Source of the DNA: Candidatus Nomurabacteria bacterium
Lineage (GTDB): Bacteria; Patescibacteriota; Minisyncoccia; Phycocordibacterales; UBA918
DNA: 64,000 nucleotides
Direction: 5' to 3'
Assembly (NCBI GenBank): GCA_023898525.1
Contig: CP060227.1
Coordinates: 823,662 to 887,661 of the forward strand
A model generated the notes under the pieces. The model was given only the letters and a program-made list of their open reading frames with translations. It ran no database searches and was not told where the DNA came from. Below are positions 11,041-30,125 of the stretch, piece by piece. The first letter of the stretch is position 1; every line of letters begins with the position of its first letter. The position numbers and the translations under genes are program-made.

Positions 11041-14000
11041 ATGAATTACTCTATTTATAAAAAACCGCAAACAGCTGGATGTGTAAGTAACTCATTTAAT
11101 TTAGCCATTACTAAAAGTGCGAGTTTTGTTCTCGCACTTCTGCTTATATTAGGGTCGTTAGAAAACGTTTCCTTTGCAGCTGTTCTTACTAATGGCGATG
11201 CTGGATATATTACCAACATTCAAACCCGTGATGGAAGTGATCTGTTTAGATCTGATGTACGAGAGGGAAGTGGTGGATTCTTATACGCATATGACATTCC
11301 CGTCCCACCTGGTGTTAACGGCCTCACCCCGCAAATCTCGCTACAGTACAACAGTCAGGGCAGTTCGGACCAAGATATACTTGGCTATGGTTGGAATCTT
11401 TCTATTCCATACATTGAACGGGTGAACAAACACGGCATCAATAAGCTCTTCGACCCCGCCTACGAAACCTTTTACTCCAGTCTTTCTGGTGAGCTTGTAT
11501 TCGATGGGGTAGATTACCTCACAAAAATCAACCAAGGCGACTTCATGAGATATAGCCGATTAAGTAATGGGTGGGTTGTTACTACAAAAGACGGTACCGA
11601 ATATCACTTTGGTTCTGACGTAGTAGCCCAACAGTCAGACCCGACCGATATCACTAACATTTCTCGTTGGTACCTCAGCTCGATTACTGACACTAACGGC
11701 AATATGGTCTCATATTCATACGTTAAAGACACTGGCGCAATTTATCCTAGTACCATCACTTACGGCCCATACACCATCGTGTTCACAACCGAAGCTGCTC
11801 CCACTCACTCGTCCTATAGTCTTGGCTTTAAGGTTGAACGAGATCAGCGTATCAATGCTATTGAAATAAAGGAAAATACCACAATCTTCACTCGACACGA
11901 CCTAACCTACGCTACTGGTATCAATACTCAACGTGACCTTCTGGAGACAATTACTCAAACTGACGTTATCACCAACACTAGCTTACCGGCGGTGATCTTT
12001 GATTACGGCGGCGAAGAAATTCCTCATTGGCAGAGCGACAGTTCGTTTGTATTCCCAGAGCCAATGGGACTTCAAGACAACGGTGTTCGGTTTGGTGACC
12101 TGAATGGTGATGGTCTTACGGATATGATTCGATACGAACGATACTGGAACGACATTCCCTCTGCACGGTGGACAGCTCGTCGTGTACACATCAATAAAGG
12201 CAATGGTAACTGGGATATAGATGTCCCGTGGAGCTGGGATGATATTGAGACACCGTTCTTCTTACACATTAATGATGGTGTATTCAGTAACACCGATAAG
12301 CGTTACGACATGGGCGCGCGCTTAATCGATGTTAACGGAGATGGGCTAGATGACTTCGTCGCTGCTTACAACTGCCTAGACTGGAGTAGTTCAGACTGTT
12401 CAAATGCACCAAACTATATGAAGGAAATTCTAGGTCCAATCCAAATGGATGTCTACCTGAACTCTGGCTCAGGTTTTGTAAAAGACGGCACTAACTGGTT
12501 AAATTTGCAGGCTATGTCTAGTTGGGATTATTCTCCTGCTGATATGACCAATCCAGGCCGAGCATTTGTTGATGTGAATGCTGACGGCTTACCAGACATT
12601 GTTCAATCAGTCGCTACGCTAAACTTCGGCTCGCATCCAAGTGAAAATGTAGCTTCAAATATTTGGATAAACACGGGTAATGATTGGGAACTTTCATCCC
12701 TTACTCTTCCTGCGGCACTTGCCAAATATCCGTGGCACCCTAGTTACCCAAATCTTCGTAAATTCAGTGACTATGGAACTCGATTTGCTGACGTTAACGA
12801 CGATGGGTTAATCGATGTTTTACGAGGATATCGACAGTCATTCAGTGGTAGCGTTAATACGTATACTGACGAAAAAACTGTATACATCAACACTGGTGAT
12901 GGTTGGGAAGAAGACGTGTCTTGGAACTTACCTGTTGAGTTTGTTATTCAAGATCAAACTTCTGGTTATCAGATGTTTGATTTTAACGGTGATAAACTTC
13001 CAGATATTCTTCAATCGCACTACCATAACAATAATGGTTTTAGTTATAATTTATACCTGAACAAAGGTACTACATGGCATCTTGAGAATTACTCAGTGAA
13101 CAGTACTCACTATCCAGTGTATCCTCAGCCACCTTTCCCGCTTACCAGGACAGCCGCTTATACAGGCGGTGGTGGTACGGCTATGATCGATTTTGATGGT
13201 GATAATCTACTTGACGCCTGGAATCTGTATTATCTAGACTTAGATGAAACTCAAAGCTCCGGTGGGAGTGTTTTCCTAAATACTTCAGATATTCCAGACC
13301 TAGTGACCTCAATCATTGATAAAAGCGGTTCCATTACTTCTATCAACTACGACGGCTACCTTGCTACTGTTCAATCAGACTATGTAAAAGTTGGTAACTC
13401 ACCAGTCAATCCGATAGTGGTCACTCATAAAACCATCGATAATAACCACGGTCACACGGTCACTGAAACATATGAGTACAATGATGCTCATCAGTACGTC
13501 GAGGTGAGCGATATTTTTGATCGCAAATTTGCCGGCTTCGGAAAAGTCACCAAAACCACCGATTTAGGAAAAGAAACCACTTACTACCACCAAGGAAACG
13601 GCGTAGCGACTACAACCGAAGAGGGCATAGATGACGAAGCATTAATCGGGCAGGTTTATCGCACAGAAATAACTGATCTTTCTGACAATCTCTATACACT
13701 TTCTCGTCAAAATTTTGCCACCACTTCACTTGGTAACGGCAGTACGTTTGTAAAACTGGAAAGCGGTCTCAAGCTTGATTACGATGGTGATAGCGACAAG
13801 AAAGCTTCGGCCAACAGCTACACCTACGACAACACCAATGGCTCACTCCTTACCAAAACGGAGTGGGGAGAGGTGAGTGGAAATACTGACGGTACTTTCT
13901 CAGATACCGGTACCGACAAGCAAGTGACAACTATTGAGTACGCTACCAATGCGAACGGTATAGTTCTACCATCCAAGCAAACCTTGACCGACAACTCTGA

Positions 14001-17000
14001 CACCAAAGTCCAAGAGTCTCGCTTCTACTACGATAACCAACCGCTTGGCACAGTTACTCTAGGTAACAAGACCAAAGAAGAGAATTGGCTAGGTGGCAGT
14101 AGTTATACAAACAAACAGTGGACATACAACAGCCTAGGGCTGGTAACCGCCGAAACTGATCCAGATGGTAATACCACCAACTATACTTACGATACCTATA
14201 ACTTATATCCAGCTAGTGTCACCAACGCCCTCAATCAAACCACACAGTACGAGTATGACTATTCTTCCGGGCAAGTAGCGACCACCACTGACGCTAATGG
14301 CAATATTTTTGCCACCACTTACGACGGGTTTGGTCGACCGCTTACCGTTACATCACCTGACCCACAGACCGGTACTCCGGTAGTACAGACCGAGTATGTC
14401 TATACCGATACTCCCGGCAGTGTCAGTGTGCAAAAGAAAGATTATCTAAATAGCGGATTAGTTAAAAACTCGTATACTTTCCTAGATGGCTTTGGCCGAA
14501 AGATGCAGGAAAGGCAAGAAGCGGAAGGAATGGATCAATACGTGGTGCGTGATTATGTCTACGGAAGCAATGATCTTTTGGAAAAAGAGTCACTGCCGTA
14601 CTTTGGTACCGGAGCGGCGAGAAGTGCTTCTACCACCAACGCAAACCTCTTAAGCACCTACGCTTACGATCCATTGGCTAGAGTAACAAGCGTAGCAACT
14701 GTGGTTGGTACGACCACTACCGCCTACGACCAATGGAAAGAAACCGTTACCGATACTGCCGGCAATGATAAGGTATTCCAGTATGACGCTTTTGGTCGAT
14801 TGGCAGCCGTGACCGAAAACGAGGGAACCAATTCATACACTACCAACTACACTTGGAATAATCTCGGTAATCTGACCAAGATAACTGACGCCGAAAGTAA
14901 TGTGCGAAATATAAGTTACGACGGACTTGGTCGCCGTACTAGCCTGGAAGATTTGCATGCACCAAGTGATAGTACTTTTGGAACTTGGACTTTTGCTTAT
15001 GACAACGCTGGCAACCTGACCAGCAAGACTAATCCAGAGAGTCAGACTACCAACTACACCTACGACGCTCTTAATCGCCAGTTGACCGAAGACTACACCG
15101 GACAGACTGGTACGGAAATCACTTATACTTATGATACTTGTACGGGTGGCGTGGGGCAACTTTGTACCGCTGCCAATTCTTCCGCTACCACTAACTACAC
15201 CTACACCCCAAACAACCTCTTGGCTTCAGAAGCTAAAACAATAAGTAGCAATACCTACACCACTAGCTATGAGTATGACCGCCAAGGCAACCAAACACTC
15301 ATTACTTATCCAGATAATTCAGAAGTGAAGTACACCTTTAATAAAGGTGGGCAGGTAGACAAAGTGGAACAAAAAGAGGGTGGGGGAACTTTTGCAAACA
15401 TTGTGAGTAATATTGATTATGGACCACATGGTCAGATGGAAAATATCGAATACGGCAATGGCTCTATAACTACTCGTACTTATGATGCGACCGAACTGTA
15501 CCGATTGAAAAATATCCTCACCACTGCCACCAGTACCTATGGCACCGGCGGTCCGGGAGAGGAGCTTATAAGTATTGAAGCCAAACTGGCTTCACTTACC
15601 ACTGAGCTCCCGCTTGCGACTACCAGTGAAGCCTTGGTGGTGGAGACGGTAGAGGAGCCGGTAGAGGAGATGGTCGCAACTTCTTCTGATCTTGCTATCG
15701 AACCGGCTACTTCAGATTCAACTACTGCAACTTCTACTAATATCGAAGCGACAAGTACAAACCAAGAAATAGCCGAAGCCGAACTCACCTCGACTACAAC
15801 CACAACTGATGAGGTGGTGGAGACTAGCGAAATTGCCACCACCACCACGGTCGCTGCTCCAGACGCGACTACCACTGCGTCTTCGTCGTCTGAAACCGCT
15901 ACCGGTACAGCTGACCAAGTGGTGAGTGTGGTAGAAGCTGATGTGGTATTTGATATACCTACCACCACTGCCACCAGTACTTTACCAGCAGTACCAACAG
16001 CTATTGCTTCTACCAGCAGTAACTCCACACCACCAGTTGCGGAAGCGGTGGTAGTTAATCAGGTAGTGGCTAAAAGCAAGCTAAAGCTAAAAATCAACAA
16101 CGCCCACGAAGCCCGAATGTGGCAAAAATACCACCATGAGCGAGTAGCTGGATTAGAAGCAGAGGGAGCTAATCAGGCTGTGCTTGATAAAGCCAAGTAT
16201 GCTCAGGATCAGTTGGAGTCATACTTAATTGAGGATGGTTATCTAAAAGAAAAAGGTGGAAGCGTAAAAGGACACGCTAAAGATTATGTAGAGAGCCAGG
16301 GTAAGAAACTTATAAGCAAAGTGGTGGACTTTATCTTACCGGATACCGTCCAAGCTTACCTATTTGGGTTAGAAGATTTTGAAAATTGTTCAGCTCTTCC
16401 GTGTACCTTTGACAACAATGTATCTTGGGGAGGGGTTACCCCGGCTTTAGATAACACCAGTAAGGTGGCTGGTGCGGATTCACTAAAAGAAACTGTGACT
16501 GGAGAAGGTTCCGGTGGCTTAGAGTTTGTTGATCAAAACACCGGCGAGATTTATGCTCAGTTTAAGGTATTTATTCCGAGTAATATGACTTGGGGACCTT
16601 CCGGTTATCATGGCATTCTTAGATTTGAAGATACGATCAACAACTCAGTTTTCTGGATGAATGTTGAGGATTGGGGCACAGCCAGACTAACCATGATGGG
16701 AGATGTTCTACCGTGGACTGACACCGGAATTGATTTGGTGAAAGGGGCGGTCAACACTATTGAAGTACGCTTTAAGACTGGAGCCACTAACGGCGATGTA
16801 GATATCTGGCTCAACAACACCAACGAAAGTGCACCTGACTACAACGGAAGTGGTACCCTAAACACCGGTACTGATAATGTTGACTATGTAATCGCCGGAG
16901 TTACTTATACTCCCGAAGCGATTAGTACCACCTACTTCGATGATATTGCTATCGACACTACCTTTATTGGTGAGCTAACTTCAGGTGGCCAACCGCCGGT

Positions 17001-18960
17001 GGTGCCATTTGTTGAGAATGTCCAAAACCTTTCCTATACCTACGACACTGTCGGTAATATTACCGAGATAGTAGACAACAGCGGTACCGACTCCGCCGGT
17101 ACCATCACCTACACCTACGACGACCTCTACCGCCTTATCTCAGCTTCCACTACTAATGCTAGTACTACTCCATACCAAGAAACCTATACCTACAACAGTA
17201 TCGGTAACGTCCTCAGCAAGTCTGATGTTGGTACGTATAGTTATGATGGTGGACAGAGTGGAGGAACCAGCTACTACATCTATGACGATAGCATCACTAC
17301 CGGTTGGACAGACTGGTCTTGGTGGACTACCATCAACCCAAGCGCCACCTCTCCTGTCTACTCAGGACTCTATTCATTGGGGTTAGTATACACCCAACCC
17401 TGGGCTGGTATCTCTTATCACAACAACAGTTTCGACAGCTCACCATATGATAATCTAGAGCTGGCGGTTAATGTCGGTACCGACACTACAGCCAATCTCT
17501 ACCTCTATTTCACCAACAGTGCCAGTACACCTTTTACCATCATTAACCTAAAAGACTACGTCACCGGCGGTTTCCAAGCCAACACCTGGCACAGCCTCAC
17601 CATTCCACTTTCAGACTTAGGTTACCAAAACTATCAAGGCGCCACTGAACTAAACATAGAGACCGACCAAGCCGCGACAGTGAATTTTGACAGTATTCGT
17701 TTGACTAGTACCGGCGGAGGAGGAAGCTACGCCAACCCCCACGCTGCCACCACCATCGGCGGCACCACCTACACCTACGACCAAAACGGTAACCTCCTAA
17801 CCGACGGTAATACCACTAACACCTGGAACTACCGCAACGAACTAACTGAGTCCACAAAAGCAGGAATAACGACCAGCTATGGATATGACCACAATGGTGA
17901 TCGAGTGTTCAAGACTACTTCCGAAGGAACGACTTATTATCCTTTCGCTAATTACGAAATTACTGATACTGGTACTACCACAAAGCACATCTACATGGGT
18001 GACCAATTAGTTGCCACGATTGAAGGTTCTGGTGCTGGAGCGTTGACGTATTACAACCATCTTGATCATCTCGGTGGTACCAGTGTGGTAACCGATGGTA
18101 TTGGAGCTATCACCCAAGAATTGGACTACTACCCATTCGGTGATACGAGGATAGATAATGAGTACGGAGACTTTAGACAACATATTCAGCACTCAGGTCA
18201 CCAGAAAGACGATGAAACAGGACTCATCTACCAAGGTGCACGTTACTATAATTCTGGTATCGGACGATATACATCACAAGATCCAGCAAACTTACGAAAT
18301 CCAGCGCAGTTCCTCTATGACCCACAACAGTTAAATACCTATGCGTATGCAAGGAATAATCCACTGAAGTACATTGATCCTACGGGGGAGAAGATTGAGC
18401 TTGTTTCTAGACCAGTAATTTCTTCTTATGATGCACATATGTTCTATCGAGTTACTCCAGATAATCCAGGCCAGATTTCTATTGATGGAATTCCTCAGGG
18501 CACTGAACAGTTTTCGATAGGGGCTTACAACCGAGGTGGTTTCTTAGGTATCGGCAATAAATTGACTCCAGAGTTTAGTTACGAAGGAGGTCCAGTGAAT
18601 ACTGACACCCCATACTTAAACGGGGAAAAGGCGCCTACAGCAAGTGTTGTTATCACACCACCAAACAACATGTCAGATACAGAGTTTATTAACAGTCTTG
18701 GTGCTTCAGCAAATAGTATCGACAAGACAGGTTATTATATGTTTGGTAAAACTGGTAAATTTGGTGTAGCTAATTCAAATAACTTCGTATACGAAGTTGG
18801 TAATAGGAGTGGTGTTGGTAATCAGGTCAGCTCGTTCAATTCAGGTGCATATACTCCAGGACAGAGTCAAGGAATCCCAACTGCAACATTGCTTGATAAT
18901 ATAAGGTCTAGCCTGAACAGTATTAAGGAGAGATTGTCCAAAAAAGATGATAGCGAATAA
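11041..18960 (+). CDS. Giant secreted polymorphic-toxin protein (2639 aa): signal peptide, SpvB/TcB-like N-terminal domain, FG-GAP-like repeats, RHS/YD repeats, S/T-rich linker plus LamG/CBM-like insert, Rhs core, variable C-terminal toxin domain
   Basis: Signal peptide ASFVLALLLILGS. DxNGDGxxD repeats (FGDLNGDGLTDM, IDVNGDGLDDF, VDVNADGLPDIV...). Many YD repeats (YTYDALNRQ, YEYDRQGNQ, YTYDTVGNI). Rhs core GARYYNSGIGRYTSQDP...NTYAYARNNPLKYIDPTGE, followed by about 200 unique residues. Confidence 0.85.
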   Translation: MNYSIYKKPQTAGCVSNSFNLAITKSASFVLALLLILGSLENVSFAAVLTNGDAGYITNIQTRDGSDLFRSDVREGSGGFLYAYDIPVPPGVNGLTPQISLQYNSQGSSDQDILGYGWNLSIPYIERVNKHGINKLFDPAYETFYSSLSGELVFDGVDYLTKINQGDFMRYSRLSNGWVVTTKDGTEYHFGSDVVAQQSDPTDITNISRWYLSSITDTNGNMVSYSYVKDTGAIYPSTITYGPYTIVFTTEAAPTHSSYSLGFKVERDQRINAIEIKENTTIFTRHDLTYATGINTQRDLLETITQTDVITNTSLPAVIFDYGGEEIPHWQSDSSFVFPEPMGLQDNGVRFGDLNGDGLTDMIRYERYWNDIPSARWTARRVHINKGNGNWDIDVPWSWDDIETPFFLHINDGVFSNTDKRYDMGARLIDVNGDGLDDFVAAYNCLDWSSSDCSNAPNYMKEILGPIQMDVYLNSGSGFVKDGTNWLNLQAMSSWDYSPADMTNPGRAFVDVNADGLPDIVQSVATLNFGSHPSENVASNIWINTGNDWELSSLTLPAALAKYPWHPSYPNLRKFSDYGTRFADVNDDGLIDVLRGYRQSFSGSVNTYTDEKTVYINTGDGWEEDVSWNLPVEFVIQDQTSGYQMFDFNGDKLPDILQSHYHNNNGFSYNLYLNKGTTWHLENYSVNSTHYPVYPQPPFPLTRTAAYTGGGGTAMIDFDGDNLLDAWNLYYLDLDETQSSGGSVFLNTSDIPDLVTSIIDKSGSITSINYDGYLATVQSDYVKVGNSPVNPIVVTHKTIDNNHGHTVTETYEYNDAHQYVEVSDIFDRKFAGFGKVTKTTDLGKETTYYHQGNGVATTTEEGIDDEALIGQVYRTEITDLSDNLYTLSRQNFATTSLGNGSTFVKLESGLKLDYDGDSDKKASANSYTYDNTNGSLLTKTEWGEVSGNTDGTFSDTGTDKQVTTIEYATNANGIVLPSKQTLTDNSDTKVQESRFYYDNQPLGTVTLGNKTKEENWLGGSSYTNKQWTYNSLGLVTAETDPDGNTTNYTYDTYNLYPASVTNALNQTTQYEYDYSSGQVATTTDANGNIFATTYDGFGRPLTVTSPDPQTGTPVVQTEYVYTDTPGSVSVQKKDYLNSGLVKNSYTFLDGFGRKMQERQEAEGMDQYVVRDYVYGSNDLLEKESLPYFGTGAARSASTTNANLLSTYAYDPLARVTSVATVVGTTTTAYDQWKETVTDTAGNDKVFQYDAFGRLAAVTENEGTNSYTTNYTWNNLGNLTKITDAESNVRNISYDGLGRRTSLEDLHAPSDSTFGTWTFAYDNAGNLTSKTNPESQTTNYTYDALNRQLTEDYTGQTGTEITYTYDTCTGGVGQLCTAANSSATTNYTYTPNNLLASEAKTISSNTYTTSYEYDRQGNQTLITYPDNSEVKYTFNKGGQVDKVEQKEGGGTFANIVSNIDYGPHGQMENIEYGNGSITTRTYDATELYRLKNILTTATSTYGTGGPGEELISIEAKLASLTTELPLATTSEALVVETVEEPVEEMVATSSDLAIEPATSDSTTATSTNIEATSTNQEIAEAELTSTTTTTDEVVETSEIATTTTVAAPDATTTASSSSETATGTADQVVSVVEADVVFDIPTTTATSTLPAVPTAIASTSSNSTPPVAEAVVVNQVVAKSKLKLKINNAHEARMWQKYHHERVAGLEAEGANQAVLDKAKYAQDQLESYLIEDGYLKEKGGSVKGHAKDYVESQGKKLISKVVDFILPDTVQAYLFGLEDFENCSALPCTFDNNVSWGGVTPALDNTSKVAGADSLKETVTGEGSGGLEFVDQNTGEIYAQFKVFIPSNMTWGPSGYHGILRFEDTINNSVFWMNVEDWGTARLTMMGDVLPWTDTGIDLVKGAVNTIEVRFKTGATNGDVDIWLNNTNESAPDYNGSGTLNTGTDNVDYVIAGVTYTPEAISTTYFDDIAIDTTFIGELTSGGQPPVVPFVENVQNLSYTYDTVGNITEIVDNSGTDSAGTITYTYDDLYRLISASTTNASTTPYQETYTYNSIGNVLSKSDVGTYSYDGGQSGGTSYYIYDDSITTGWTDWSWWTTINPSATSPVYSGLYSLGLVYTQPWAGISYHNNSFDSSPYDNLELAVNVGTDTTANLYLYFTNSASTPFTIINLKDYVTGGFQANTWHSLTIPLSDLGYQNYQGATELNIETDQAATVNFDSIRLTSTGGGGSYANPHAATTIGGTTYTYDQNGNLLTDGNTTNTWNYRNELTESTKAGITTSYGYDHNGDRVFKTTSEGTTYYPFANYEITDTGTTTKHIYMGDQLVATIEGSGAGALTYYNHLDHLGGTSVVTDGIGAITQELDYYPFGDTRIDNEYGDFRQHIQHSGHQKDDETGLIYQGARYYNSGIGRYTSQDPANLRNPAQFLYDPQQLNTYAYARNNPLKYIDPTGEKIELVSRPVISSYDAHMFYRVTPDNPGQISIDGIPQGTEQFSIGAYNRGGFLGIGNKLTPEFSYEGGPVNTDTPYLNGEKAPTASVVITPPNNMSDTEFINSLGASANSIDKTGYYMFGKTGKFGVANSNNFVYEVGNRSGVGNQVSSFNSGAYTPGQSQGIPTATLLDNIRSSLNSIKERLSKKDDSE

Positions 18961-19440: not shown

Positions 19441-20200
19441 GGGGTCAGCCACCATTTATGATAAAATAAATGAATGCCAAGAATAAAAAGAGTAGATGTT
19501 GGTGGTGAAGTATATCACGTACTAAATCGTGCTAATGCTCGAGTGCAGATATTTGATAACAAAAAAGATTATCAGCAATTTGAAGAAATACTTGAAGAGG
19601 CTATTGAAAAATACGAAGTACCATTACTGGCATATTGTGTTATGCCAAATCACTGGCATATGGTACTGCAACCAAAACAAGATGGTGATATGCAGAAATT
19701 TATTGGGTGGCTTTCTAATACGCATACTCGTAGGTGGCATGTTACAAAAGATACAATAGGTCAAGGTCATCTATATCAGGGTCGATACAAATCATTTATT
19801 TGCGAACAAGACCATCACCTACTTACAGTTCTTAGATACGTTGAACGAAACGCTAAAAAAGCAAATTTAGTCAAAAAGGCTGAAGACTGGCAATGGTCAA
19901 GTGTATGGAGAAGAGAAAATGGTACTTTAGAACAAAAGAAAATATTAAGTAACTGGCCTATATCTATACCAAGAGACTATTTAAATCTTCTTAATAAACC
20001 TATGAATGAGTCTGAAGAAGAGGCTTTAGAAAAATCAGAAGAAAGAAGTATACCTTTTGGAGAAGAGGAGTGGGTTAATAGAAAAGTTAAAAAGTATGAG
20101 ATTGAACAAGTGTTACGGGGAGTAGGTAGACCTAAAAATGGTGGCTGACCCCATTTCTGACCCCATTTCCCCATTTCCACCATTTCCATTTCCGGAAAGG
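19441..20200 (+). mobile_element. REPtron-like unit: rayT gene flanked by inverted REP-like repeats, plus a CCATTTC tandem array
   Basis: GGGGTCAGCCACC at 19441-19453 and its exact reverse complement GGTGGCTGACCCC at 20140-20152. Then CCCCATTTC-type units repeat 5 times (20149-20200). Confidence 0.6.
19474..20148 (+). CDS. rayT: REP-associated tyrosine transposase RayT (Y1 HUH transposase, IS200-like fold) with a C-terminal extension
   Basis: YHVLNRAN. HUH motif PNHWHMV. GHLYQGRYKS. RYVERNAKKANLV...WQWSS. Confidence 0.8.
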   Translation: MPRIKRVDVGGEVYHVLNRANARVQIFDNKKDYQQFEEILEEAIEKYEVPLLAYCVMPNHWHMVLQPKQDGDMQKFIGWLSNTHTRRWHVTKDTIGQGHLYQGRYKSFICEQDHHLLTVLRYVERNAKKANLVKKAEDWQWSSVWRRENGTLEQKKILSNWPISIPRDYLNLLNKPMNESEEEALEKSEERSIPFGEEEWVNRKVKKYEIEQVLRGVGRPKNGG

Positions 20201-20276: not shown

Positions 20277-20957
20277 ATGCAATGTATTATTTTGGCGGCT
20301 GGCAAGGGATCAAGACTTAGGCCGATAACAGACACTATCCCTAAACCGTTAGTGAAAGTTGACGGAAAAACCCTGATGGATCACGTAGTAGGGGCGTTAC
20401 CTAGTTCAATAAAGGAATTGATTATTGTTGTAGGTTATAAAGGTGACATGATAAGGGAATACTGTGGGGACAGCTTTTACGGACGACCGGTTACTTATTT
20501 GGAACAAAAGGAAATAAATGGTCCGGCCAAGGCGTTATGGCTCGCCAAAGATTTGATTAAAGGACGATTTCTTTTTATGTTTGCTGATGATATTCATGGT
20601 CGTGACGACATGGCGAGGGCGGTTTCTTATAGTCGCTCTATCTTGGCAACCACCAGTGACACTCCGGAACGCTTTGGTGTAATTGTTCGTAACCCTGATG
20701 GTACGATTGCTGATATGGTAGAAAAACCTTCATCCCCATCCTCCAATTTAGTTGCTACCGGACCAATGGTGTTGGATCAGCATATCTTTGATTTTGCTCC
20801 CGAGGCACCAATTAATGGTGAATATTTCATGCCTGAAATAATTATGCGCTATAAGGAGAAATATCCAATGGCGGTTGTGGAAGAGAACTTTTGGTTGGCG
20901 ATTGGTTACCCTGAAGACTTGGAAAAAGCTGAAAAGAAGATACAATCACTATCTTAA
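20277..20957 (+). CDS. Sugar-phosphate nucleotidyltransferase (NTP_transferase family)
   Basis: N-terminal MQCIILAAGKGSRLRPITDTIPKPL is the G-x-G-x-R pyrophosphorylase motif. Confidence 0.7.
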   Translation: MQCIILAAGKGSRLRPITDTIPKPLVKVDGKTLMDHVVGALPSSIKELIIVVGYKGDMIREYCGDSFYGRPVTYLEQKEINGPAKALWLAKDLIKGRFLFMFADDIHGRDDMARAVSYSRSILATTSDTPERFGVIVRNPDGTIADMVEKPSSPSSNLVATGPMVLDQHIFDFAPEAPINGEYFMPEIIMRYKEKYPMAVVEENFWLAIGYPEDLEKAEKKIQSLS

Positions 20958-20967
20958 ATAATTTATT

Positions 20968-21651
20968 ATGCAATGTGTTATCCTGGCGGCGGGAAAAGGA
21001 ACCCGCATGCGGCCTTTAACTGAACAAACTCCAAAACCGTTAATAGAAGTCTGTGGCAAACCTTTATTGCAGCATATCGTCGAAGCTTTGCCTGATGAAG
21101 TCGATGAAATAATCTTAGTGGTTAATTATCTTGAGGAGCAAATAAGGCGACATTGCGGTCTGCATTACTGCGGTAAATTGGTTCAGTATGTGCACCAAGA
21201 GAACGCGGTTGGGGGGACTGGTGAGGCTTTGCTGGCTGCGGCGCCACTTATCGAAGGAAGGTTTATGTTTATGTATGCTGATGACATTCATGGGTCGTAT
21301 GCTCTCAAAGCAGCTGTAACTTATCCTTATGCAATGCTTTCGGTGCAGCACGATGAACCACAGCATTTTGGTGTTTTGGATCTAAACTCGGACGGCACTC
21401 TCAAGGCTATTCATGAAAAGCCAGCAGAACCTACATCTAATCTTATAAACATCGGCGGGATGGTTTTGGACAAAAAGATATTTAAATATGATGTGGCACG
21501 GTCAGCGAATGGCGAATTGTATGTGACCGATATGGTAACGGCTTTTGCTCAGGATTATCCTGTTATGGTAGTGGAGCAATCTTTGTGGTTGCCGCTTGGG
21601 AAGCCGGAGGATATTTTGGCGGCGGAAAAAATGCTAGGGTGCAACCGGTAA
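20968..21651 (+). CDS. Sugar-phosphate nucleotidyltransferase, tandem paralog of the upstream gene
   Basis: MQCVILAAGKGTRMRPLTEQTPKPL. Alignable to the upstream gene along its whole length. Confidence 0.7.
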   Translation: MQCVILAAGKGTRMRPLTEQTPKPLIEVCGKPLLQHIVEALPDEVDEIILVVNYLEEQIRRHCGLHYCGKLVQYVHQENAVGGTGEALLAAAPLIEGRFMFMYADDIHGSYALKAAVTYPYAMLSVQHDEPQHFGVLDLNSDGTLKAIHEKPAEPTSNLINIGGMVLDKKIFKYDVARSANGELYVTDMVTAFAQDYPVMVVEQSLWLPLGKPEDILAAEKMLGCNR

Positions 21652-21705
21652 GAGAGGTGCAAGAAATTGAAAAAAATAGAATTTTATAGTAATGTGTTGA
21701 GCACT

Positions 21706-21779
21706 GTCGATGTAGCTCAGTCGGTTAGAGCGTAGCACTCATAAAGCTAAGGTCGGAGGTTCGATCCCTCCCATCGACA
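21706..21779 (+). tRNA. tRNA-Met (anticodon CAT), elongator type; could be tRNA-Ile2(LAU)
   Basis: Cloverleaf: acceptor GTCGATG/CATCGAC, D-arm GCTC-AGTCGGTTA-GAGC, anticodon loop CTCATAA, T-arm GGAGG-TTCGATC-CCTCC. G1-C72 is paired, so it is not an initiator. Confidence 0.85.
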
Positions 21780-22091
21780 CAATGTAGCGAAGCGGAATTG
21801 CGGAGAGGGGAAGCGCAAGGTTTGCGTCTAGCAAACCGAGCAGGGATCGAACGACGGGATGATGTCAGTATACGAGCGAATGAGGCGATAAAACAATGTT
21901 TAAACATAGTTTTATCGCGGCACCATGTATTTTTGTGAGTGAAACTAAACAAAATACACCGGTAACCGTCAGGATGACTTCTTCTATCTTTTCGAAGCGG
22001 GATGCTTTGAAAATTTACAAAATCATGTATAATGCTAGGCACAAACTTTATTTACCGAGGAAAAAGAAGGTTTTTGATAAGTTTGTTGACT

Positions 22092-22421
22092 GCGGTGGTA
22101 GCTCAACTGGTTAGAGCACCCGCCTGTAGACGTGCAGCTTTTTGTGCGAAAGCCAAATTGAAACTCTCCGGGATATCGGTGAAGGCTAAGTCTTCTTGAA
22201 GATATGCGAATACCGAGGGAACCCTATACACAAAAAAACATAGTATAGGGGCTCCGTAGAGACTAGATACCGGGGTACCTAAACCCAGCACTGCTTTTAA
22301 CTCTAAATATATTTAAAGTTAAAAGCAGTGCTGGACATGGTAAAGATATAGTCCACGCCTTTGTGAAAACATTGGAAGAAGTGCACGCGGGAGGTTGCGG
22401 GTTCGAGTCCCGTCTACCGCG
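22092..22421 (+). tRNA. tRNA-Asp (anticodon GTC) interrupted by a 256-nt group I intron in the anticodon loop (between positions 35 and 36)
   Basis: 5' exon GCGGTGGTAGCTCAACTGGTTAGAGCACCCGCCTGT. 3' exon CACGCGGGAGGTTGCGGGTTCGAGTCCCGTCTACCGCG. The T-arm and G73 are Asp-like (E. coli tRNA-Asp has the identical T-arm GCGGGTTCGAGTCCCGT). The spliced anticodon loop is CTGTCAC. Confidence 0.75.
22128..22383 (+). ncRNA. Group I self-splicing intron (256 nt) within tRNA-Asp
   Basis: The exon ends in U, paired to an intron G (P1: exon CTGT / intron GCAG). The intron ends in G. S element AAGATATAGTCC at 22343-22354. R/P7 GACTAGATACCGGGG at 22261-22275. GGACATGG P6-like. AAATTG P4-like. P10 CGTG:CACG. 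Confidence 0.75.
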
Positions 22422-22435
22422 CAGTTAGGTAAAAA

Positions 22436-22470
22436 CAAAAAACCACCAATGCTTGGTGGGTTTTTGTTTT
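22436..22470 (+). terminator. Rho-independent terminator after tRNA-Asp
   Basis: AAAAAACCACCAATGCTTGGTGGGTTTTTGTTTTT. Confidence 0.7.
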
Positions 22471-22721
22471 TAGGAAGCAAACTGCTTTGCTTTCGTACCT
22501 AACTGCTAGAAGGAGACATGCTGCTTTGCAACAGTTGGGTCCGGGTCAACAGTGTATTTATTTATTTTGGTACTTTAGACTCTGTTGAGATTTTAGAGAA
22601 TTTTAGTAACGGTAGTTGGTTAAGGAAGGATATATCTAAGTTGCCACAAGCCATCTCAAAGGATTGAACTCTAGACCTTTGCATTACAATTGAGTAAATC
22701 AGTGTCGTAAAAGATTATTAT

Positions 22722-22794
22722 GAGCCGACTCCGAGATTCGAACTCGGGACCTACGGTTTACGATACCGTTGCTCTACCTACTGAGCTAAGTCGG
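22722..22794 (-). tRNA. tRNA-Thr (anticodon CGT)
   Basis: Minus-strand cloverleaf: GCCGACT-TA-GCTC-AGTAGGTA-GAGC-A-ACGGT-ATCGTAA-ACCGT-AGGTC-CCGAG-TTCGAAT-CTCGG-AGTCGGC-T. Confidence 0.85.
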
Positions 22795-22868
22795 CGACGA
22801 ATATAATGTTAGTATAGTCGGACTTTGATTTCAATTGATTTTTTGATAGGATAGGCAAACTGAATATT

Positions 22869-22941
22869 GCCAATGTAGCTCAGTTGGTAGAGCGCGTCCA
22901 TGGTAAGGACGAGGTCTCCGGTTCAATCCCGGACATTGGCT
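22869..22941 (+). tRNA. tRNA-Thr (anticodon GGT)
   Basis: GCCAATG-TA-GCTC-AGTTGGTA-GAGC-G-CGTCC-ATGGTAA-GGACG-AGGTC-TCCGG-TTCAATC-CCGGA-CATTGGC-T. Confidence 0.85.
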
Positions 22942-22946
22942 CAAAA

Positions 22947-22975
22947 TAAAAAGCACCCGTTTAGGGTGCTTTTTA
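22947..22975 (+). terminator. Rho-independent terminator after tRNA-Thr(GGT)
   Basis: AAAAAGCACCCGTTTAGGGTGCTTTTTATT. Confidence 0.7.
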
Positions 22976-24432: not shown

Positions 24433-24682
24433 AAAAGTTACACAGAAGGATTGCCGTTTAATAAAGCTGAGCCCATAAAAGATACTTAAAAATCCTTTTT
24501 ATGGGCTTTTTCTTGTTGATAACTCAAAGGTATTTTTATTCCTATTTTAAATTTTTGTGATATTATGCGATTGGGTTGTAAAACCAAACTTAATTGGTCA
24601 ACAATGACAGGTGTCCAAGGGGAGGGTTGACTTTTTATCTAATTAATTGTAGACTTAAAAAGAACCTTTGAAGGAGGATGTC

Positions 24683-24955
24683 ATGAAAATTGTCTTACAA
24701 AAAGCAATTGATAAAATTGTACAAATTTACAATGTTTGGTCTGATTTTACTGATAATTTTATCAAAAACAGACCTCGCAAATTTTTAATCATTGTGTTTG
24801 GCACAATCTTTGCTGTTTCTGTTATGTTTCAAGGTGGTCTAGTTTCGGTTGGTGACTTAGTACAAACTGCGGTGGCTGCCGGTATATTGTCCTTGATATT
24901 ATTTGTAATCATTGCTGGGCAGATAAGTCGCGATGTCGAGAGGAGTCGTGAGTGA
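24683..24955 (+). CDS. Hypothetical two-TM small protein
   Basis: SD AAGGAGGA sits 5 nt upstream of the ATG at 24683. The track start at 24668 is a TTG inside the SD. Confidence 0.45.
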   Translation: MKIVLQKAIDKIVQIYNVWSDFTDNFIKNRPRKFLIIVFGTIFAVSVMFQGGLVSVGDLVQTAVAAGILSLILFVIIAGQISRDVERSRE

Positions 24956-25089: not shown

Positions 25090-25962
25090 ATGAAAGATCC
25101 ACAAGTACGAATTGCTGATATAGAAGCCAAGATGCTCGAACCGACTTTTTGGAACGACTCAAAAGCCGCGCAGGCCATGATTAAGGAACTGCAAGAGCTT
25201 AAGGATGCGGTGGAAGGCAAGGGTAAATACGACCGAAGTAACGCTGTTATGACCATAGTGGCTGGCGCGGGCGGAGATGATGCGGAAGACTTCGCGCGGA
25301 TGTTGGTCGAGATGTACCGCGGGTATTGTACGAGTAAAGGATGGGAGATGGTGGTCTTAGATAGTAACACCAATGATCACAATGGCTACCGTAATATCAC
25401 CATCGAAATACAAGGCAAAGAAGCTTACGGTACTTTGCGACACGAGTCTGGCGTGCATCGTCTGGTGCGTATCTCACCTTTTAATAGTAACGGTAAAAGA
25501 CAAACTTCTTTTGTTTTGGTTGAAGTCTCACCACGGATTGATGATGTCAGTGCGGTGGAGCTTAAGGATGATGAGTTGGAGGTGAGTTTTGCCCGCGCCG
25601 GAGGCGCGGGCGGTCAAAACGTAAACAAGCGGGAAACTGCAGTTCGCATTGTGCATAAGCCGACCAATATCTCCGTTCATGTCTCTTCTGAGCGGTCACA
25701 ACAGCAAAACCGTGAGCGTGGCCTGGCGCTACTGGCTGGTAAACTTTATGCGTTTTACGAAGCGCAGCGTGAGCGAGAGCTTCAAGGATTGTCGGTTGAG
25801 AAAACTCTCAAGATAGAGTGGGGTAGCCAGATCCGGTCTTATGTTTTACACCCGTATCAGTTGGTAAAAGACCATCGGACCGGCGTAGAGGTGCGTGATG
25901 TTGAAAAGGTTTTGTCGGGTGACATCAGTTCGTTTATAAGCGCTTCTCAGGGTAAAAATTAA
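25090..25962 (+). CDS. prfB: Peptide chain release factor 2 (short N-terminal domain, no programmed frameshift)
   Basis: SPF motif ([15 protein letters not shown]). GGQ motif ([12 protein letters not shown]). 290 aa in a single frame. Confidence 0.85.
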
Positions 25963-29909: not shown

Positions 29910-29931
29910 TGCCGGATCGTCTAATGGTAAG
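29910..29931 (+). other. Partial duplicate of the 5' 22 nt of tRNA-Gln
   Basis: TGCCGGATCGTCTAATGGTAAG versus the tRNA 5' end TGCCAGATCGTCTAATGGTAGG. Confidence 0.5.
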
Positions 29932-29997
29932 CAGAGCTTTCTTTCATCATTCGCTCGGACACAGAAGAGGTATTTTGTACAAATTTATATTCACCGC

Positions 29998-30068
29998 TGC
30001 CAGATCGTCTAATGGTAGGACTCCAGGTTTTGGTCCTGGCTATCTAGGTTCGAGTCCTAGTCTGGCAG
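29998..30068 (+). tRNA. tRNA-Gln (anticodon TTG)
   Basis: TGCCAGA-TC-GTCT-AATGGTA-GGAC-T-CCAGG-TTTTGGT-CCTGG-CTAT-CTAGG-TTCGAGT-CCTAG-TCTGGCA-G. U1-A72 and G73 are Gln-type. Confidence 0.8.
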
Positions 30069-30125
30069 CGGTGGATGGAAATACAAAATACCTCTTTTGT
30101 GTCTCTCGCTCATTCGAAAGTAGGT

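Follow-up and report, generated by a model that had tools for sequence, protein, structure and literature searches.

Structure, boundaries and sequence family of a group I intron in the tRNA-Asp(GUC) gene of a Candidatus Nomurabacteria genome

The split tRNA-Asp gene

A 64,000-nucleotide (nt) stretch of a Candidatus Nomurabacteria genome (GenBank assembly GCA_023898525.1), referred to as the window, was analysed with respect to positions 22092-22421, which almost certainly represent a transfer RNA (tRNA) gene, tRNA-Asp(GUC), split between U35 and C36 of its anticodon by a 256-nt group I intron free of any endonuclease gene. The structure of the gene, its boundaries and isotype, the conserved and covarying ribozyme fold of the intron and the identity with a published locus are established here (Table 1). 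The locus is already known, down to its boundaries, and adds no new biology: Table S3 of Nakagawa et al. (mSystems 2026; PMC13011429) lists it for GCA_023898525.1 (GTDB class Paceibacteria) as Asp(GTC) 35/36, coordinates 845753-846082, of which 845789-846044 are intron. The published sequence and window 22092-22421 were found to be identical at 330/330 positions, and the lower-case intron of the entry agrees with 22128-22383 at 256/256 positions, with the same boundaries (36 + 256 + 38). Beyond that paper, the present analysis offers a covariation-backed structure, syntenic empty sites that fix the boundaries and a sequence family distinct from that of the assayed introns; the residual novelty lies only in this sequence family and in a possible link to phage tRNA introns.

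When the two exons were joined in silico, a 74-nt cloverleaf was obtained, with the anticodon loop CUGUCAC, that ARAGORN called as tRNA-Asp(gtc). On the genomic sequence, intron-aware ARAGORN reported tRNA-Asp i(37,256), and default ARAGORN missed the tRNA-Asp at 22092-22421. The spliced sequence matched annotated tRNA-Asp in 5426 of 5426 complete Escherichia coli genomes, and four uninterrupted metagenome genes were identical to the ligated exons at 74/74 positions. The CCA end is not encoded after exon 2, the bases downstream being CAG. A sequence-only reading of this DNA had proposed the split tRNA-Asp(GUC) with its 256-nt group I intron at 35/36 and the rebuilding of a canonical tRNA-Asp with G73 from the exons; the former was borne out by the covariance model, the covariation and the empty sites described below, and the latter by ARAGORN and the E. 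coli matches. The U-G pair of P1 at the 5' splice site (U22127-G22134), the terminal G (G22383) and the S element and P7/R motifs (22343-22354 and 22261-22275) that it had pointed out were likewise recovered.

The comparison with the group I intron model RF00028 that had been suggested as a check was made by a local, E-value-thresholded Rfam search, and it gave an end-to-end match (model 1-253 of 253) at 22116-22375, with a score of 48.8 bits and an E-value of 1.8e-11. Against the profile of its own family the intron scored 201 bits. Its folding energy was -94.6 kcal/mol (z = -6.3), and the minimum free energy (MFE) structure alone recovered P1-P6, P8 and P9. No open reading frame (ORF) longer than 27 aa lies wholly inside the 256-nt intron and no homing-endonuclease ORF was found in it; in the published survey, endonuclease genes were confined to tRNA introns longer than 500 bp (PMC13011429).

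Table 1. Window positions of the split tRNA-Asp gene, the helices and motifs of its intron and the flanking signals.
Feature	Position	Strand	Description
Candidate promoter	22007-22033	+	TTGAAA (22007-22012), 15-nt spacer, TATAAT (22028-22033); tRNA 5' end about 58 nt further downstream; found by eye
tRNA-Asp exon 1	22092-22127	+	36 nt; acceptor 5' strand, D-arm, anticodon-stem 5' strand, C32 U33 G34 U35
3' end of exon 1	22127		...CCTGT (...CCCGCCTGT); identical to the published exon
Group I intron	22128-22383	+	256 nt; begins AGACGTGCAG, finishes GAAGTG
P1	22124-22137	+	exon CUGU and intron A1 (22124-22128) paired with UGCAG (22133-22137)
P2 hairpin	22141-22157	+	GAAA tetraloop 22148-22151
P3	22166-22171 with 22270-22275	+	CUCCGG with CCGGGG
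P4	22176-22181 with 22211-22216	+	encloses P5
P5	22185-22192 with 22201-22207	+	95-100% paired
P6 and P6a	22218-22255	+	P6 GG/CC; P6a hairpin CCCUAUAC / GUAUAGGG
P7	22261-22265 with 22349-22353	+	GACUA (within R element) with UAGUC (within S element); pseudoknot
R-element motif	22261-22275		GACTAGATACCGGGG
P8	22276-22342	+	base UACC/GGUA; receptor-like CCUAAA...CAUGG; 18-bp perfect extension hairpin 22285-22334
S element	22343-22354		AAGAUAUAGUCC (AAGATATAGTCC)
P9.0	22355-22356 with 22381-22382	+	range 22355-22382; encloses P9
P9	22358-22364 with 22369-22375	+	GAAA tetraloop 22365-22368
Omega-G	22383	+	last intron nucleotide, 3' splice site; directly after the covarying P9.0
tRNA-Asp exon 2	22384-22421	+	38 nt; 5' end CACGCGGG; C36 A37 C38, anticodon-stem 3' strand, variable loop, T-arm, acceptor 3' strand, G73
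Intrinsic terminator	22443-22469	.	bidirectional; 7-bp stem CCACCAA TGC TTGGTGG, T-runs on both strands

Isotype and intron boundaries

The same sequence can be read as a tRNA-Ala(UGC) with an intron at 33/34 if the boundaries are moved by 2 nt, so that exon 1 runs to U33 (22125) and exon 2 opens with UGCAC (22382); the spliced RNA would read CCUGUCAC if Asp and CCUUGCAC if Ala. With these boundaries, too, position -1 is U and omega is G in the window, and tFind calls the locus Ala in exactly this way (Table 1 of PMC13011429). Nevertheless, the Ala reading is barely credible in view of several lines of evidence. G73, G10 and C38 were present in every family member and G3:U70 in none, among the matches listed, and the Ala boundaries would place A or U at omega in 10 of the 24 homologues among the matches listed. 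The position that would then be omega (alignment column 308) forms a covarying P9.0 pair with column 283, the base after P7. Similarly, the U-G wobble of P1 falls at U35 in 22/22 sequences, U33 being in a Watson-Crick pair. In a metagenome scan with the same anticodon arm and T-arm, in which the junction bases were left free (G or T), 50 of 50 uninterrupted genes carried GT (Asp) and 0 carried TG (Ala). The E. coli matches of the spliced sequence were tRNA-Asp without exception.

The empty sites, too, connect 22127 to 22384. All 50 uninterrupted genes have the loop CTGTCAC, and ARAGORN called tRNA-Asp for 49 of them. Two uninterrupted genes, L140 and L145, in which 22127 is joined directly to 22384, are syntenic with the window: both have a tRNA-Met that is 96% identical on the upstream side and a tRNA-Thr downstream. 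Since the bases on either side of each junction differ (5' T|A, 3' G|C), the insertion corresponds to 22128-22383 without ambiguity, between anticodon positions 35 (U35) and 36 (C36). The identity elements of tRNA-Asp are known from work on the E. coli and yeast tRNAs to be G73, G10, C38 and G34-U35-C36; the window tRNA carries all of them and lacks the Ala determinant G3:U70. The sequence also backs tRNA-Asp against the legend of Fig. 3b of the published paper, where this locus is given as 'tRNA-Asn (GUU)'; Asp(GUC) stands in Table 1 and Table S3 of the same paper (PMC13011429).

The syntenic locus tRNA-Met, tRNA-Asp, tRNA-Thr, prfB-ftsEX-pyrG (window 21704-22960) was observed with an intron in L075 and with none in L140, L145 and L151. 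The relatives with (L075) or without the intron (L145, L151) are similarly diverged, at about 70% nucleotide identity in prfB-ftsEX-pyrG.

Homologous introns and covariation of the fold

Homologues were collected with an exon-only pattern in one genome per species, in which the tRNA-Asp T-arm is preceded by G-CAC and not by U-CAC. At least 120 loci were matched, and a group I-like S element was found just upstream at 24 loci among the matches listed, L005 being incomplete. Introns of the same family as that of the window, 57-81% identical to it, occupy the same tRNA-Asp site at 21 or more loci in other Patescibacteria, in metagenome-assembled genomes (MAGs) labelled Saccharibacteria, Daviesbacteria, Paceibacterota, Yanofskybacteria, Nomurabacteria, Lloydbacteria, Minisyncoccia and Elulimicrobium. 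Because the genome was derived from a metagenome, a false join of two tRNA halves around unrelated sequence during assembly or binning was considered, and it can practically be dismissed: the same exon-intron-exon order is seen in more than 20 independent assemblies, L075 has it with neighbours that match those of the window (tRNA-Met, Asp, Thr, followed by prfB-ftsEX-pyrG), and the source is a 1.09-Mb genome listed as complete.

Covariation was evaluated on an alignment of 22 sequences, namely the window intron and 21 homologues. RNAalifold recovered the anticodon stem across the intron together with P1, P3, P4, P5, P6/P6a, P8 and P9. The full P1-P9 structure, with the P7 pseudoknot and P9.0, was then written out and its pairs were counted. 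Standard pairs filled 96.0% of the cells, compared with 33-43% when the 3' partners were slid by 1-3 columns, and 34 of the 61 pairs of the P1-P9 model showed changes on both sides. None of 500 shuffles matched any of the five observed covariation measures.

Among the individual helices, P1 places U35 (U-1, 22127) in a wobble with G22134, and this U-G pair was found in 22/22 sequences; the A-U pair of P1 was replaced by G-C in one sequence of the alignment, and the guide GCAG was present at 23 of 24 loci, among the matches listed. P2, also recovered by the MFE fold, showed changes on both sides at all 6 pairs, with 83% of the cells paired even though some rows are offset by one column in the MAFFT alignment. 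Double changes were found at 5 of 6 pairs in P3 (98.5% of cells paired), at 6 of 10 in P6/P6a (93% of cells paired) and at 6 of 7 in P9. P4 was 100% paired, with pair 64:130 as A-U in 14 sequences and U-A in 8. In the base of P8, one pair occurred as C-G in 13 sequences and U-A in 9, and another as A-U in 13, G-C in 5, C-G in 2 and U-A in 1; the P9.0 pair 283:308 was C-G in 13, U-A in 8 and U-G in 1. The five pairs of P7 were invariant and complementary in 22/22 sequences, an invariance that is uninformative for covariation and consistent with a catalytic, guanosine-binding core.

A motif resembling the 11-nt receptor, GCUAAG...UAUGC, was also noted in P5. The GAAA tetraloops of P2 and P9 and the receptor-like motifs of P5 and P8 should, by analogy with the Azoarcus intron, clamp the fold. 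The long P8 extension is common only to the window and L059 within the 22-sequence alignment. It was considered as a dispersed repeat or miniature inverted-repeat transposable element and rejected as such, given that within the window its arms occur in the intron only.

Splicing and decoding of aspartate

On the proposed mechanism, the tRNA-Asp gene would yield one precursor transcript ending at its own terminator (22443-22459). The intron would fold into P1-P9, with the GCAG guide paired to the exon CUGU and U35 held in the U-G wobble (U35-G22134); an exogenous guanosine bound in P7 would cut after U35 (22127), and P9.0, with P7, would then set G22383 into the same site, so that ligation of the exons gives the loop CUGUCAC. 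The tRNA would be finished by RNase P, 3' trimming and CCA addition. Self-splicing of this particular intron is thus predicted from its architecture and conservation.

Several points weigh against the view of the locus as a tRNA gene with a working group I intron. Splicing at the locus is predicted from DNA sequence, and both Patescibacteria 35/36 introns that have been spliced in vitro fall in another sequence family, scoring 17.8 and 22.1 bits with the profile of the window family at about 53% identity. At the Rfam gathering threshold of 50 bits the locus is not reported, because its RF00028 score of 48.8 bits falls 1.2 bits short. The omega-G found in 24/24 sequences of the homologue set was imposed by the search pattern and is no independent evidence; for the window itself, this G is set by the empty sites. 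In its canonical register P10 has 0 contiguous pairs. The P10 match CGTG:CACG of the sequence-only reading had to be given up as a conserved element, since it conflicts with P1 by reusing G22134, already the wobble partner of U-1, and reaches 4-5 bp in 12/22 family members and only 1-2 bp in the remainder; it would be a minor contributor at best. In addition, no sigma-70 promoter passed a consensus scan of the + strand, the spacer of the TTGAAA-TATAAT pair being 15 nt against the required 16-18, and this pair is a weak candidate for the tRNA-Asp promoter. P10 is dispensable or weak in many group I introns, and its lack does not exclude membership of the group.

The RF00028 score just below the gathering score, and the fact that standard annotators pass over the gene, would also suit a tRNA pseudogene broken by a decayed or inactive intron-like insertion and giving no functional tRNA. 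Such a pseudogene is very improbable. All core helices are intact, and compensatory changes in at least 21 species have preserved them. Each exon agrees at 100% with uninterrupted genes elsewhere, and a terminator of its own follows the gene; Asp codons are normally used and, by the published counts, this is the only tRNA-Asp of a complete genome. The lack of a covariance-model hit, which the sequence-only reading had named as the sign of a disrupted tRNA, is misleading in one respect, as it would be wrongly triggered at the Rfam default threshold; the search by E-value does return the match. Only 5 of 20 same-family relatives reach the RF00028 gathering score, at 51-55 bits, which accounts for systematic under-annotation.

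An intron that is genuine and removed in vivo, yet requires a protein cofactor or unusual conditions or is regulated, was weighed as well and is judged rather unlikely. The window's family lies far from the introns spliced in vitro, P10 is weak and the P9 of the window contains two U-U mismatches, all of which would fit such a dependence. Efficiently self-splicing small tRNA introns, such as that of Azoarcus, combine GAAA tetraloops with receptors of the kind described above. The compact and complete architecture of the window intron, with its two GAAA tetraloops and two receptor-like motifs, resembles these efficient introns and argues against a cofactor, as does the absence of an intron-encoded protein. 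Furthermore, other Patescibacteria 35/36 introns splice without protein (PMC13011429). The group I intron of this tRNA-Asp gene is real and very probably functional.

In Table S2 of the published survey, the tRNA-Asp count of GCA_023898525.1 is 0 by tRNAscan-SE, 1 by ARAGORN and 0 by tFind, which counted the gene as a third Ala (PMC13011429). By these published tRNA counts the split gene is the only tRNA-Asp gene of the genome, and GAU and GAC can therefore be decoded only once the intron has been removed; in seven ORFs of the window, 6.4% of the codons specify Asp. The gene is thus essential by the published counts, and the organism's sole tRNA-Asp depends on removal of the intron. Control of tRNA-Asp supply by growth state, through GTP-dependent splicing that gates the sole tRNA-Asp, is a speculative and rather unlikely possibility. 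Default annotation fails at this locus, with no tRNA-Asp from tRNAscan-SE, Ala from tFind and Rfam short by 1.2 bits, and a failure of this kind can make a complete genome seem to lack a tRNA.

Relationship to published introns

Introns at 35/36 account for 28 of the 333 tRNA introns found in complete genomes, and 19 of these 28 come from Patescibacteria (4,934 complete genomes were surveyed), in which the site is enriched and characteristic (PMC13011429). The description of the 35/36 site as uncommon in the sequence-only reading consequently holds for bacteria overall and fails for Patescibacteria. Introns at this tRNA site are mostly without endonuclease genes, 25 of the 28 were assigned to subgroup IA, and nearly all Patescibacteria tRNA introns are IA and not IC (PMC13011429). 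The present locus agrees with the Patescibacteria 35/36 introns in its GUN-anticodon tRNA, its insertion at 35/36 and its Patescibacteria genome. Regarding priority, the tFind preprint (Williams 2020; 10.1101/2020.01.27.920355) states in its text that the known tRNA/site classes were widened to 21; Asp is unnamed in that text, the table of the preprint being an image, and priority for Asp therefore rests, as far as the text goes, on a 2025 preprint and the 2026 paper.

Precise self-splicing in vitro has been shown for one Asn and one Asp intron at 35/36 of Patescibacteria (PMC13011429). The latter, a tRNA-Asp(GUC) intron of GCA_001029755.1 (Microgenomatia), shares with the window intron the isotype, the 35/36 site, U-1, omega-G, the absence of an endonuclease and a Patescibacteria host, but differs from it in sequence, being 53% identical globally and scoring 17.8 bits with the window family profile. 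It has the core AATTCGGGGAAACC...GGTAATCCCGAGC, compared with GGGATATCGGTGAAGG...AATACCGAGGGAAC in the window intron, the guide GGCAG and a shorter length of 196 nt. The tRNA-Asn(GUU) 35/36 intron of GCA_030583765.1, on the other hand, belongs to the same family as that of the window (129.8 bits, E 4e-41; sequence from Table S3 of PMC13011429). It shares with the window intron the CUGU|...G splice context, a CGCAG-type guide and the P9 GAAA hairpin, and differs in its Asn host, its length of 205 nt and the lack of the long P8 extension.

With the IC3 introns (Azoarcus tRNA-Ile(CAU), cyanobacterial tRNA-Leu(UAA)) the window intron has in common a size of about 200-250 nt, the absence of an ORF, a place in the anticodon loop and the P1-P9 core, and further the GAAA tetraloops of P2 and P9 and the 11-nt-receptor-like motifs of P5 and P8, the Azoarcus features being general background. 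It differs from them in its position, IC3 introns being inserted at 34/35, 36/37 or 33/34, and in its core sequence. The core signature of IC3 introns is AAUUGCGGGAAA...CAAUCCGCAGCCAAGC, and this signature is absent from the window intron.

A different, IC3-looking intron was observed at the same 35/36 site of tRNA-Asp in L099 (Thiotrichaceae MAG) and L109 (Patescibacteria group MAG). Its core is AATTCAGGGAAACC... in L099 and AATTGCGGGAAACC...CAATCCGCAGCCAAGCC in L109, a close variant of the IC3 signature in both cases, and the two introns scored only 12.7 and 8.7 bits, respectively, against the window family profile. At least two unrelated-looking intron families thus appear, from their sequences, to use the tRNA-Asp 35/36 site.

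Distribution, mobility and viral relatives

In many Patescibacteria, members of the window's family occupy the CUGU|N site in tRNA-Asp and in tRNA-Asn genes alike. Outside cellular genomes, the invariant 17-mer of the family led to six large viral contigs (IMG/VR, 60-485 kb) with group I introns that share the P3-P8 core and score 47-73 bits against the window family profile. Five of the viral introns, with the guide GAGCC and not GCAG, lie at 34/35 of tRNA-Ile(UAU) in L173, L177 and L178 and of tRNA-Leu(UAA) in L174 and L176; the copy of the core in L172 lies outside any tRNA. The viral copies, together with the presence or absence of the intron at syntenic loci, hint at mobility without an endonuclease. 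That the family moves among GUN-anticodon tRNA genes, and between phages and Patescibacteria, through reverse splicing is a tentative idea, with the odds against it.

A window-type tRNA-Asp intron was also observed in L055, a 315-kb contig with the label 'uncultured Gammaproteobacteria'; either this organism label is wrong or the intron family may reach beyond Patescibacteria. The tRNA-Asp 'introns' of 99-117 nt reported by intron-aware ARAGORN in L023, L104 and L114 (Paludibacteraceae) and in L025 and L035 (Alphaproteobacteria) were rejected as artefacts of that mode: these five loci contain a complete tRNA-Asp and, 60-120 nt further on, a second, directly repeated copy of its 3' half, as expected for attachment-site (att) remnants of integrated elements. 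L084 (Bacteroidetes MAG) and L113 (Proteobacteria MAG) have an uninterrupted tRNA-Asp-like body and T-arm with the loop CUGGCAC (anticodon GGC, nominally Ala), and could be sequencing errors, pseudogenes or anticodon-switched tRNAs.

Genomic context

The host is a member of Patescibacteria (Candidate Phyla Radiation, CPR), and DNA of its genome is present in the Logan run SRR12358676. The window encodes the cellular housekeeping genes LigA, GatA, PilC, PrfB, FtsE/FtsX, PyrG and DinB, as well as MgtE, and its CTP synthase is GenBank USN87577.1 (Candidatus Nomurabacteria bacterium). A phage origin of the window was rejected, as no DNA similarity to 50,697 phage records was found apart from a tRNA-Thr. 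No further copies of the intron family and no other split tRNAs were found within the window, and the 'tRNA-Ile i(37,64)' called by ARAGORN at 29910-30069 was discarded as spurious, since it overlaps an ordinary tRNA-Gln.

The terminator of the tRNA-Asp gene (+) sits between it and a convergent tRNA-Thr(CGU) (-, 22722-22795). Further downstream, the release factor 2 (RF2)-like ORF at 25090-25962 (+) encodes only 290 aa; its match to Pfam PCRF begins at profile position 94, the first approximately 70 residues are missing, and a gene of 290 aa is likewise called in the Logan assembly. A short ORF with a CUU-UGA frameshift site was not seen upstream of it in any of the frames, and the 95-aa ORF upstream of it (24668-24955) had no Pfam match. 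On the other side of the tRNA cluster, the 2,639-aa ORF at 11041-18960 (+) matched solely phrog_10385, a phage family of unknown function (E 7.5e-76, over part of its length), and its GC content (0.46-0.47) is above that of its surroundings. The 224-aa ORF at 19474-20148 (+), just upstream of the tRNA cluster, resembles a REP-associated tyrosine transposase (NF047646, 69.8 bits, cutoff 80). Two tandem paralogous genes for sugar-1-phosphate nucleotidyltransferases (20277-20957 and 20968-21651, +; 226 and 227 aa) lie directly upstream of tRNA-Met, and L075 and L145 apparently contain one matching nucleotidyltransferase stretch only.

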